Shown here piece after piece: positions 8,169 to 10,158 of a stretch of DNA of 30,815 nucleotides; the stretch's first letter is position 1; each line of letters begins with the position of its first letter. Position numbers and translations under genes: made by a program. The notes beneath the pieces are model-generated. The model was not told where the DNA came from. It saw nothing but the letters and a program-made list of their open reading frames with translations, and searched no databases. The DNA is from a virus (Duplodnaviria > Heunggongvirae > Uroviricota > Caudoviricetes). The stretch lies in IMG/VR virus record IMGVR_UViG_2531839668_000005. The stretch is one strand, 5' to 3'.

Positions 8169-9122
8169 TTAGAGTCTTTTTCGTACAGATGAACGGGGGA
8201 TCTCTGGCTTCATTTCTTTTAACAGGTCTTTTTTCTCTCTTGCTGCGATATAAGAAAAAATCTTATCGGAGTCAGAACGCTGTCTGAGTATATCGTCGTC
8301 CATTCGGATACCATTTCGAATGAACCATTTCACACTTTCTATGCCGGTGTAGATACCAATATGTTTATCATGATAACAATTATAAAACTGAACATGACTG
8401 ATATCGGTATATTTTTTCAGTGAGGTAAAGAAGTACTTCATGTTTTTGACATATAATGCGAAGGAACAGTGTTCAGCGATAAGGATATTACGCCCTTTTT
8501 CATGAAGCAAAGCAATTAGAGGCAAAGCCTCAGTTGAAACATGTTTAAATAATACTGGCGTGCTGTCTATTCTATCAACATGGCGTTTGAGGGCATTAAT
8601 ACTGAAATCATATATCCACCACTCGTTGTCAGTCGGAAGATCCAGCACCGCTTTGCCACCATAATCTCTGTGGTTTATGTCACACCCTTTATTTACCCAG
8701 TAATCAAAGACGTCATGATCGAGGAGGTCATAAAGAAGCGTTTGTCCTTCGTTATCTGTGCTGTGGATATCAATGCCCGCGTTTATGAGGAGTTCCGCAC
8801 AATCTATGGCGTAGCGCTGCCAGTGAAGACAGGACTGGCCTTTATTATTTTTGTGGTGAACGTTAATACCTGACTTTATCAATAGCCTCACTGCACGTGG
8901 GCTTTTTCTGCTAAACAGGGCATTATTACCATAACAATCTGTATGGTTCAGCGCTATGCCTGCTTCAATCATGGCTTTTAAAGCCCCGATACTGTCGCAA
9001 CCGAAAAGGGCGTTTTCACCGTGTTCATTAAGTGTGTTAATGTCAATGCCTGCAGCAATGCAATTCTGGACGTCTTTTTTAGTTTTGCTGTCAAATAAAT
9101 TATCTTCTGTATAGTTACTCAT
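8169..9122 (-). CDS. ankyrin-repeat protein (317 aa)
   Basis: Several repeats of the ankyrin consensus (G-x-NALF/LH...A...G...LI..GADIN), e.g. GENALFGCDSIGALKAMIEAGIALNHTD and GQSCLHWQRYAIDCAELLINAGIDIHSTD. C-terminus ...PRSSVRKRL. Confidence 0.75.
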   Translation of the reverse strand: MSNYTEDNLFDSKTKKDVQNCIAAGIDINTLNEHGENALFGCDSIGALKAMIEAGIALNHTDCYGNNALFSRKSPRAVRLLIKSGINVHHKNNKGQSCLHWQRYAIDCAELLINAGIDIHSTDNEGQTLLYDLLDHDVFDYWVNKGCDINHRDYGGKAVLDLPTDNEWWIYDFSINALKRHVDRIDSTPVLFKHVSTEALPLIALLHEKGRNILIAEHCSFALYVKNMKYFFTSLKKYTDISHVQFYNCYHDKHIGIYTGIESVKWFIRNGIRMDDDILRQRSDSDKIFSYIAAREKKDLLKEMKPEIPRSSVRKRL

Positions 9123-9136
9123 GGGCGTTCTCCTTT

Positions 9137-9577
9137 TTAAGCGGTCGTTTTGTGCCAGGTATTATTGTTGTATTCATATTCTTTTATCTTAATGATCTCG
9201 TCATAGATCCGTGAAAAAGAAAACCATGAGATCTCTTTCACTTCGCCTTTTTTGTTTGTGTAAATGATATTGCAGCCACGAAAAGAAAATGACTGATAGA
9301 AAGTATCGTGATTCTCCTCTTTAAGAAAACGGGTAAAAGCTTTTATGGTGTCTTTTTTTTCCATGCTATAAGAGAAAAAGGTATGGATAGCAAATATGGT
9401 CAGAATATTTCTTTCCGTCACCATATGTCTGGAAAAATAATTAAGATAAAAAACATGATCTTCAATGCTATTTTTACAGAATATTGAAAAGTGAGGGTTA
9501 TACAGACGGTAGAGATCTGTATTCTTTTTTGTTTTAGATAGGTAACTTGTCAGGGTTGAATAGTTTTGTTTTTTCAT
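9137..9577 (-). CDS. hypothetical protein (146 aa), upstream of and co-oriented with the ankyrin gene
   Basis: ORF separated from the ankyrin gene by 14 bp; very AT-rich leader upstream (9580-9936). Confidence 0.45.
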   Translation of the reverse strand: MKKQNYSTLTSYLSKTKKNTDLYRLYNPHFSIFCKNSIEDHVFYLNYFSRHMVTERNILTIFAIHTFFSYSMEKKDTIKAFTRFLKEENHDTFYQSFSFRGCNIIYTNKKGEVKEISWFSFSRIYDEIIKIKEYEYNNNTWHKTTA

Positions 9578-10158
9578 TTTTATTCTCCTTTATTATTTTG
9601 ATGAAATGAATGTATATTATCAAATAAATAAAAATCAAATTTATTTTTAATAATAAAAAATAAGCAAGCGTTTTCTTTTGAATAAACTAATTTAATGTGA
9701 TGTTTTATATAAATAAATTCATAGTTTGCAAAAAGTGCTATTTTTATTTCATGGTTGATTGATGGGCGTTTTTCCCCATTGCTTAGGGGGAAATATATCC
9801 CATTAATATTAAATGTTTGAAGTGAATCGTATTTTAGCAGGGGAATATTATATCTTTTACTTCTGTTTTGATTTTCAACTTTGTGTGTGAGACACAATAT
9901 GTGATAGTGTTGTGATAATCGTAAGTATCCTGCCAAAACGAATCATTCACTTTAAACCTTTACTGACATATTGGTTATATATTCTGAGAAATTTATAGTG
10001 CAAAAGGCTCGGTGTGCAGACTTACGCCAGCCCAATCAAGCCGTAGTGCTTTAGTTTTGGGGCTTAGGTATGGTGGAAAAAAGCGACTCGTTAAGCTTAC
10101 TGAGCTCTATGTATTTCAGGAGTCGGTCAGTAAGTTAACGATCCAAGAGGCTCATCAA

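Follow-up and report, generated by a model that had tools for sequence, protein, structure and literature searches.

The window analysed here is a 30,815-nucleotide stretch of DNA recorded as a caudoviral sequence (IMGVR_UViG_2531839668_000005). On its minus strand it carries a two-gene operon consisting of orf146 (146 aa, 9137-9577) and ank (317 aa, 8169-9122), the latter encoding an ankyrin-repeat protein that we call Ank317. The operon is autonomous and under selection, is borne by a mobile element, and occupies a fixed backbone position adjoining the mobilization genes of that element. Assigning function by context and by sequence and model comparison, we tentatively propose that the pair may be an establishment or host-interaction module that serves the mobile element and not the host, a reading that we consider possible though short of probable.

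An operon at a fixed position in the backbone of a mobilizable island

The two open reading frames (ORFs) had been predicted at these lengths and positions, and the ORF list bears this out. They are separated by 14 bp, and an AAGGAG Shine-Dalgarno motif, read from the sequence, lies 7 nt 5' of the ATG of both genes. That they form an operon, as originally suggested, is supported by the close spacing, a promoter-like site at the 5' side, a terminator-like hairpin 3' of ank and a conserved gene order. In RefSeq, where both genes are annotated in 66 Escherichia coli chromosomes, orf146 is labelled "hypothetical protein" and ank "ankyrin repeat domain-containing protein". The ratio of nonsynonymous to synonymous substitution rates (dN/dS) ranges from 0.07 to 0.40, and both genes are under purifying selection.

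We compared 14 chromosomal loci retrieved via either protein. They come from at least 10 genera, and include Citrobacter, Enterobacter, Superficieibacter, Pseudocitrobacter, Leclercia, Kluyvera, Atlantibacter and Escherichia ruysiae, among others. The order orf146-Ank-MobC-relaxase-o91-o132-o92-o163-o187 is kept in 13 of the 14, the exception being the E. ruysiae locus L020, which has no Ank. The same order is mostly found in 50 further loci from metagenome and viral collections, retrieved with the leader pattern alone. The region upstream of orf146 varies, and contains an ars operon, DUF4928/NACHT genes or a further Ank paralogue. Because the gene order is kept in nearly all loci while the upstream region varies, the pair belongs to the backbone and not to the cargo. 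It is a conserved module located between variable cargo and the MobC/relaxase genes, and points to the latter. The original prediction did not include this context: the pair is no free-standing cargo, and forms a backbone module immediately 5' of, and co-oriented with, the mobilization genes.

Horizontal acquisition, which was part of that prediction, is supported on two counts. The locus lies in an island with genes for a relaxase, MobC, recombinases and an integrase, and its occurrence is limited to 66-159 of the 5426 complete E. coli genomes, depending on how a match is counted; the pair does not qualify as a housekeeping operon. In E. coli, every copy is chromosomal. This allele is present at ≥99% identity in 62 genomes, and any match at blastn sensitivity is found in 159 (~3%), although the majority of the diverged matches span no more than 30-39% of the query, chiefly orf146. 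The corresponding 21 kb of E. coli 300709 carry, in order, genes for a DUF6387 protein, an AlpA-like protein and small proteins, the relaxase, MobC, Ank, orf146, DUF4928, NACHT and RelA/SpoT-like proteins, two ParB-like proteins, a serine recombinase and an integrase. The island adjoins ypjA and tRNA-Ile; a P2-like prophage comes next. No gene for a type IV secretion system (T4SS) or a type IV coupling protein is annotated in the 21-kb island of 300709. The island has its own relaxase and MobC, an integrase-domain protein, a serine recombinase (PF00239/PF07508) and an AlpA-like gene. Since mobilization and integration genes are present and a conjugative apparatus is missing, we classify it, by gene content, as an integrative mobilizable element (IME), one of a family of such elements in Enterobacteriaceae.

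The leader contains a conserved block

The leader of the operon (9578-9936) has a GC content of 0.253, compared with 0.414 for the window, and only 0.8% of 357-nt windows reach a GC content of 0.25 or less. The leader thus lies within the most AT-rich part of the window. In the proximal part (9578-9745), the GC content is 0.16. The idea that the leader is merely AT-rich foreign DNA could not be maintained, as its proximal ~170 bp form a conserved, apparently regulatory block. In an alignment of 13 leaders (A4), including those of plasmids L002 and L006, the mean column identity is 73%, whereas the proteins encoded by the same elements share only 43-60% identity. In the two plasmids of A4, which belong to an otherwise unrelated family of 22-37 kb plasmids, the orf146 homologue is ~43% identical at the protein level. 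When the whole of plasmid L006 is compared with the window, the leader and the 5' end of orf146 are the only DNA in common.

Within the block, we identified two candidate operators and a sigma-70-like promoter, which is a prediction from sequence and conservation (Table 1). The boxes are also named by their core letters, AGCACTTTTTG and GAAAACGYTTKC. Box 1 occurs once in the window; it forms a TAGCA-N5-TGCTA palindrome in some relatives and is degenerate in L020. Box 3 is a perfect palindrome, GAAAACGTTTTC, in L017, L002 and L006. The -10-like TATACA is TATATA in most relatives, and a promoter scan gives an overlapping alternative, TTGATA-17-CAAAAT, at 9623-9595.

Structured RNA does not account for the conservation. 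RNAalifold revealed no conserved RNA structure in the leader beyond a single trivial A-U hairpin that lacks covariation, and the leader has no match in Rfam; a riboswitch or structured 5' leader is thereby ruled out. A promoter of the Frpo type, active on single-stranded DNA, is unsupported as well, the single-strand fold of 9570-9940 having z = -1.86 and no long promoter-mimicking hairpin. Since neither RNA structure nor an Rfam family nor a Frpo-like hairpin was found, the conserved leader is most likely promoter and operator DNA. A 118-aa ORF with a TTG start spans 9580-9936, but it is not a gene, as it matches no family and its 5' half is not conserved among relatives. The base composition of the leader (GC 0.25, and 0.16 proximally, against 0.41 for the window) is that of the AT-rich promoters of H-NS-silenced genes, which makes xenogeneic silencing of the operon by H-NS plausible.

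The leader is not confined to islands. Enterobacterial plasmids of 22-37 kb, which carry DotA/TraY-like, DUF927 and ParA genes and their own H-NS and are typed as non-mobilizable, have the same leader and an orf146 homologue (for instance, L006 (NZ_CP089433.1), 3153-5241; L002, 10001-12080; and L071). There, the orf146 homologue is followed, sometimes after a 144-aa gene, by two or three paralogous proteins of 254-262 residues. Their similarity to the N6-methylase model PF02384 is confined to its first third, and they may be inactive. In L071, the leader directly precedes a methylase-like gene. Because they precede different, paralogue-rich payloads in islands and plasmids, the leader and orf146 can be regarded as a portable unit.

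Table 1 Features of the operon, its leader and the adjoining mobilization genes.
Feature	Position	Strand	Evidence
Distal leader, AT-rich, non-conserved, junction with variable cargo	9746..9936	-	15-leader alignment loses similarity 5' of AGCACTTTTTG box
Predicted promoter/operator region, conserved, travels with orf146 in islands and plasmids	9578..9745	-	alignment A4
Box 1, ATAGCACTTTTTGC, candidate operator or distal -35 element	9728..9741	-	nearly invariant in A4; function predicted
Box 3, GAAAACGCTTGC, candidate operator	9664..9675	-	A4; function predicted
Sigma-70-like promoter, TTGATT-16 nt-TATACA, preceded by A/T-rich tract	9611..9638	-	read from sequence; conserved in A4
orf146, predicted soluble, basic protein, helical bundle and 3-stranded sheet	9137..9577	-	AlphaFold model, sequence
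Ank317 residues 1-165, ~five ankyrin repeats, acidic (isoelectric point 5.4), more variable part	8628..9122	-	Pfam, AlphaFold model
Ank317 residues 166-304, alpha/beta domain (beta-alpha-beta-alpha-beta and helices), family-restricted	8211..8627	-	AlphaFold model
Ank317 residues 305-317, basic tail ...PRSSVRKRL	8172..8210	-	alignment A2, model
Hairpin, 13-bp stem and T6, terminator-like end of ank operon	8066..8094	-	terminator scan
Block CTTGACTTATT...GTTATCTGTAG 5' of mobC, mob promoter, most likely place of the origin of transfer	7968..8065	-	conserved across all subfamilies
MobC-family relaxosome accessory protein, 135 aa	7560..7967	-	41% identity, E = 6e-20, to MobC of pWES-1
Relaxase, 411 aa, MobA/VirD2-type nuclease domain, MOBP-class by nearest typed plasmid relative	6328..7563	-	PF03432, E = 1.6e-22

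Modular organization of Ank317 and features of the orf146 product

Ank317 had been described as a multi-ankyrin-repeat protein of 317 residues. The ankyrin assignment is upheld by profile searches, in which Pfam models score above their gathering cut-offs at residues ~13-165 (Ank_4, 37.4 bits with a cut-off of 22.7; Ank_2, 36.8 with 27.3; Ank, 25.6 with 21.1), and the AlphaFold model agrees with Pfam: the tandem repeats are ~33 residues long and fold into a solenoid of helix-turn-helix units and beta-hairpins. The repeats are limited to residues 1-165, about half of the protein.

The C-terminal half is basic. Within its alpha/beta domain, C219, K265 and Y291 never vary, and H194 and D275 hardly do; residues 255-300 constitute a conserved sub-region. 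A phmmer search with this domain against 1.84 billion representative sequences returned 15 hits, all of which are family members or fragments. A profile search reached enterobacterial proteins only, including a few of ~170 residues that may be stand-alone copies of the domain. No match was found in a sequence-profile search of the PDB, and no nuclease, NADase or other effector signature was revealed in the domain by family and PDB profile searches. The protein ends in a tail (isoelectric point 11; predicted local distance difference test (pLDDT) score, 51-62) whose terminus, [KRG][KR]R[LIM]-COOH, is conserved across alleles and in two paralogue groups. Basic C-terminal tails recall type IV secretion signals, MuA-type ClpX tags and nuclear localisation signals.

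The orf146 product has an isoelectric point of 9.3 and no transmembrane segment, and its model has a pLDDT of 79. The first 28 residues are the most conserved part, and the N-terminal peptide YSTxTSYLSKTxKNxDxYRxYNP is strongly conserved; since synonymous sites vary, this conservation acts at the protein level. The protein has no PADLOC match and no detectable relatives outside its family. Ank317 has no signal peptide, and both proteins are predicted to be soluble and cytoplasmic. A "fusion" protein of 187 residues (P0071) matches both genes, but it is a frameshifted, error-ridden assembly product and not a true fusion.

Ank317 paralogues of the same architecture, with ...KKRL or ...GGRL ends, are encoded directly 5' of the conserved leader in L023 (8659-9645), L025 (8658-9644) and L027 (8138-9124). 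Another is found in L009 (19133-20137); in most loci it lies beyond DUF6387, at the far end of the island backbone. Distant homologues of 412 residues occur alone elsewhere, next to an OLD-family ATPase and UvrD-helicase pair (Gabija-type layout) and Hcp islands.

Diverged alleles are exchanged at the locus

The pair varies much more than its neighbours do. For instance, in L009, MobC and the relaxase are 97% and 88% identical, compared with 63% for Ank and 67% for orf146; in L025 and L027, MobC is 86% and o91 93-97% identical, compared with 40% for Ank and 59-60% for orf146. Synonymous divergence (dS) is saturated in ank and orf146 (1.3-3), and is 0.1-0.5 in the neighbours, which argues for recombination. 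Positive selection was rejected as a cause of the divergence in view of the dN/dS values of 0.07-0.40 and of the saturated dS beside low-dS neighbours, and relaxed selection because the dN/dS values are as in the backbone. Alleles are mosaic and reassort. Within ank, identity is 83-96% over residues 255-300 in cases in which it is 45-62% over residues 1-254, and L036 combines an orf146 of 73% identity with an Ank of 96%. The alleles are best described as old and diverged, and as exchanged by recombination. The conserved anchors that flank the exchange are the ~170-bp leader and, at the opposite end, the last ~60 codons of ank together with mobC.

The element can persist without Ank, which is missing from L020 and frameshifted in L039, L042 and L067. 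In L020 (10001-10781), a 350-bp spacer with a possible basic ORF of ~30 residues separates orf146 from mobC.

The mobilization genes and the hairpin downstream of ank

The relaxase is 43% identical to that of pWES-1, which is typed as MOBP by MOB-suite, and has partial matches to the NCBIfam models MobB, TraI_MobP and MbpB. A perfect hexanucleotide repeat, (TGGCAC) x 7.7, at 6685-6730 encodes a Pro-Val run (PVPVPV...) of this protein; as the length of the relaxase varies from 393 to 425 residues among related loci, a repeat-length polymorphism is suggested.

In three island subfamilies, the hairpin that follows ank has entirely different stems, each of which is self-complementary, so that the hairpin must be selected as a structure. 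It is read as the terminator of the operon, although it could alternatively be an inverted repeat of the origin of transfer (oriT). The block between the hairpin and mobC contains an inverted CAGATAA/TTATCTG repeat. No convincing nick core of the MOBP (ATCCTG) or MOBQ (AAGTGCGCC) type, and no oriT homology, was found near mobC; the candidates TTATCTG|TAG and AATAAGTCAAG resemble such cores only in part, and comparison with pWES-1 pinpointed no nick site.

Proposed function of the orf146/ank pair

The pair adjoins the conserved block 5' of mobC, and the relaxase gene lies on the opposite side of that block. Relaxosome genes are usually located in the lagging region beside oriT, and genes of the leading region, on the other side, can be transcribed from the T-strand (PMC11541004). 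Were oriT located in the block, ank and orf146 would be the first genes to enter a recipient, and by their orientation the transferred strand would be their template. In the recipient, the variable ankyrin groove might bind a protein of the host or of a rival element, such as a defence or stress factor, while the conserved C-terminal part and tail would provide a common function, be it docking, turnover or export. A variable groove combined with a constant C-terminal part fits an adaptor whose targets, be they proteins of hosts or of rivals, keep changing. Methyltransferases, the class to which the genes that follow orf146 homologues in the plasmids are similar, are among the gene classes enriched in the leading regions of plasmids (PMC11541004). 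As long as the island is at rest, the very AT-rich promoter with its candidate operators would hold expression down via H-NS and/or a repressor. The pair also displays deep allelic diversity, cassette exchange and a protein-binding scaffold, which are typical of genes that meet the proteins of other organisms.

Several points weigh against an establishment or host-interaction module. No oriT or nic site was found near mobC, and the hairpin-then-sequence order on the sense strand of the mob genes could imply the opposite polarity of transfer. The leader folded as a single strand lacks a Frpo-like long hairpin (z = -1.9). Searches of Pfam, NCBIfam, PADLOC and PHROGs gave no match to an anti-restriction, anti-CRISPR, SOS-inhibitor or single-stranded DNA-binding protein (SSB) family, all matches being ankyrin-level or sub-threshold. 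The methylase-like neighbours in the plasmids, which align with no more than the initial third of PF02384, may lack activity. Frpo/ssi-like promoters are a feature of leading-region genes, yet they are not obligatory for the class.

A bolder form of the proposal can be put forward as speculation, and we regard it as doubtful. Ank would help a conjugatively transferred element to establish itself or to counter defences, and would be the first ankyrin-type factor with such a role; it would be made at the very start of transfer, or even exported at that time through the helper T4SS by means of its conserved basic ...RKRL tail. Its hypervariable groove would neutralise an immune or stress protein of the recipient, and the ultra-AT-rich ~170-bp leader and orf146 would be a portable early-expression cassette, shared by mobilizable islands and plasmids, for ankyrin or methylase-like payloads.

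Alternative explanations

The pair might instead be a defence or exclusion module that protects both the host and the island. Its ankyrin repeats would detect a protein of a phage or plasmid, orf146 and/or the C-terminal domain would be the effector, and allelic diversity would result from an arms race with invaders. The surroundings lend some weight to this: in related strains, the island and its neighbourhood carry defence-type genes, which encode a dCTP deaminase, a NACHT protein and a DUF4928 protein resembling type II restriction enzymes, the distant 412-aa homologues reside beside the Gabija-type gene pair and Hcp islands, and alleles are deeply diverged and exchanged as cassettes. Ank317 itself matches the PADLOC candidate PDC-M72A (E = 3e-8). 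This match links residues 13-99 to positions 274-366 of a 392-residue profile and thus reflects ankyrin similarity only; neither the rest of that protein nor the other parts of the system were seen, and we rejected the identification. Moreover, in nearly every element the module takes up the same site in the backbone, beside the mob genes, and not a variable cargo slot, the C-terminal domain has no nuclease, NADase or other effector signature, and orf146 travels with methylase-like genes in plasmids. We consider a defence role unlikely, if worth keeping in mind.

A role as an accessory to mobilization, modulating the relaxosome, the helper coupling protein or the timing of excision and transfer, appears quite unlikely. 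The nearest analogy would be CtiC of SGI1. Type IV secretion recognition tails resemble the basic C-terminal tail of Ank317, ankyrin repeats are protein-protein adaptors, and the genes lie immediately 5' of mobC and the relaxase gene in the same orientation. Islands are known to encode modulators of helper plasmids (PMC13635750). What speaks against such a role is the independence of the pair: Ank alleles do not co-vary with those of MobC or the relaxase, L020 keeps the mob genes without Ank, the pair stands apart from the mob operon in having a conserved promoter of its own and a terminator-like hairpin at its end, and homologues of both proteins occur away from any relaxase.

If the pair were ordinary silent cargo, kept off by H-NS through its AT-rich promoter and unrelated to transfer, which comes close to the original prediction, the finding would be ordinary too. 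The leader composition (GC 0.25, proximally 0.16), the H-NS paralogues carried by the related plasmids and the patchy distribution in E. coli would all agree with this reading. It leaves the fixed position in a conserved backbone, the purifying selection on both genes and the specific boxes kept by the non-coding leader, which are unexpected for merely AT-rich DNA, unaccounted for, and is decidedly improbable.

An addiction (toxin-antitoxin-like) pair with one unstable partner, which would stabilise the island, is very improbable. In its favour are the small size and co-transcription of the two genes, their location on a mobile element, the conservation of the C-terminal tail, and promoter boxes that are palindromic like those of autoregulated toxin-antitoxin operons; the basic tail of Ank317 resembles the MuA-type class of ClpX recognition signals. 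Nevertheless, no toxin-antitoxin family is matched in Pfam, PADLOC or NCBIfam, the partners reassort and each occurs without the other, frameshifted Ank coexists with intact orf146, and sizes of 317 and 146 residues are atypical for such a pair.

Lastly, an effector aimed at eukaryotic cells, suggested by ankyrin repeats of the kind that is classic among Legionella and Coxiella effectors, by weak NCBIfam matches to AnkY and AnkH and by a tail (PKRKRM / PVRKRL) resembling a monopartite nuclear localisation signal, is extremely improbable, as the NCBIfam scores are 22-25 bits with cut-offs of 600 bits, many commensal and environmental genera are among the hosts, genes for a secretion system are lacking in the vicinity, and the mobilizable-island backbone and the plasmid link fit a bacterial target better.

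Other features of the island

A gene-free, AT-rich gap of ~1 kb (3479-4451), conserved in size across the island family, contains three iteron-like repeats (...CTGTCAG.A.AAATACGCTTCGCGCA) at 3920-4053, 49 bp apart. The adjacent gene (2915-3478) encodes a 187-aa protein with weak HTH_36, Rep_O and Rep3_N matches. The gap may be the replication origin of the excised element.

The window differs from E. coli 300709 at several sites. At 10510-11761, an IS3 copy replaces ~3.3 kb of the 300709 sequence, comprising the rest of the DUF4928 (type II restriction-enzyme-like) gene, the NACHT-domain gene and the small RelA/SpoT-like gene; a 90-aa C-terminal fragment of DUF4928 (10159-10431) remains in the window. 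The serine recombinase is encoded by two ORFs (306 and 201 aa; 15091-16651) in place of the single 518-aa gene of 300709, apparently following a frameshift. In 300709, an anti-phage dCTP deaminase gene lies between the integrase gene and the P2-like prophage; in the window it is replaced by ~660 bp of unrelated sequence (18482-19145). The P2-like prophage, which begins at ~19146, is 84-96% identical to that of 300709.

Comparison with known systems

Mobilizable islands move resistance and defence genes among Enterobacteriaceae, and most of their backbone genes have no known role. Full-text literature searches by protein accession and topic retrieved no paper on the pair, its accessions or the island family, and none describing an ankyrin protein in a leading-region role. 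The pair is an accessory module of a mobile element built on a common repeat scaffold; the points of interest are the orphan domain, the conserved, ultra-AT-rich leader shared by islands and plasmids, and the diversity of the cassettes.

Bacterial ankyrin-repeat proteins other than the Dot/Icm effectors AnkY/LegA9 and AnkH/LegA3 include the Bd3460 immunity protein of Bdellovibrio (PDB 5cea) and YahD/ArpA of E. coli. Ank317 differs from all of these in its C-terminal domain and RKRL tail, which are unique to the family, in the lack of a signal peptide and in its mobilization-module context. Its similarity to AnkY and AnkH is restricted to the repeats, with scores of 25.5 and 22.4 bits compared with an equivalog cut-off of 600 bits. 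Similarly, PDC-M72 of PADLOC shares with Ank317 a significant match and a region rich in defence genes, and differs in that only the repeats are alike.

The mobilization genes have their closest counterparts in the MOBP/MOBQ modules of small plasmids, such as pWES-1, and of IMEs (Guedon et al. 2017, PMC5704250). In addition to MobC (41% identity) and the relaxase (43% identity), the likeness extends to the integrase, the serine recombinase, the AlpA-like gene and the lack of a transfer apparatus. In contrast, these modules have no ankyrin/orf146 pair, which is specific to the present island family.

The systems most relevant to an establishment or host-interaction module are the establishment and anti-defence islands found in the leading regions of conjugative and mobilizable elements (Samuel & Burstein 2024, PMC11541004). 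The pair has no homology to ArdA, KlcA, PsiB, SSB, anti-CRISPR proteins or the other families listed there, and no Frpo-like promoter was found. In common with these islands, it consists of small, diverse genes located beside relaxosome genes, away from the relaxase and all pointing to the presumed oriT; the element is predicted to be mobilizable, and the orf146 homologue is linked to methyltransferase-like genes in plasmids. If the proposal is true, the pair would add a new class of proteins to those by which conjugative elements counter host defences, and would bring a new orphan domain for characterization; the conserved leader would be a useful marker for finding further cassettes of this type.

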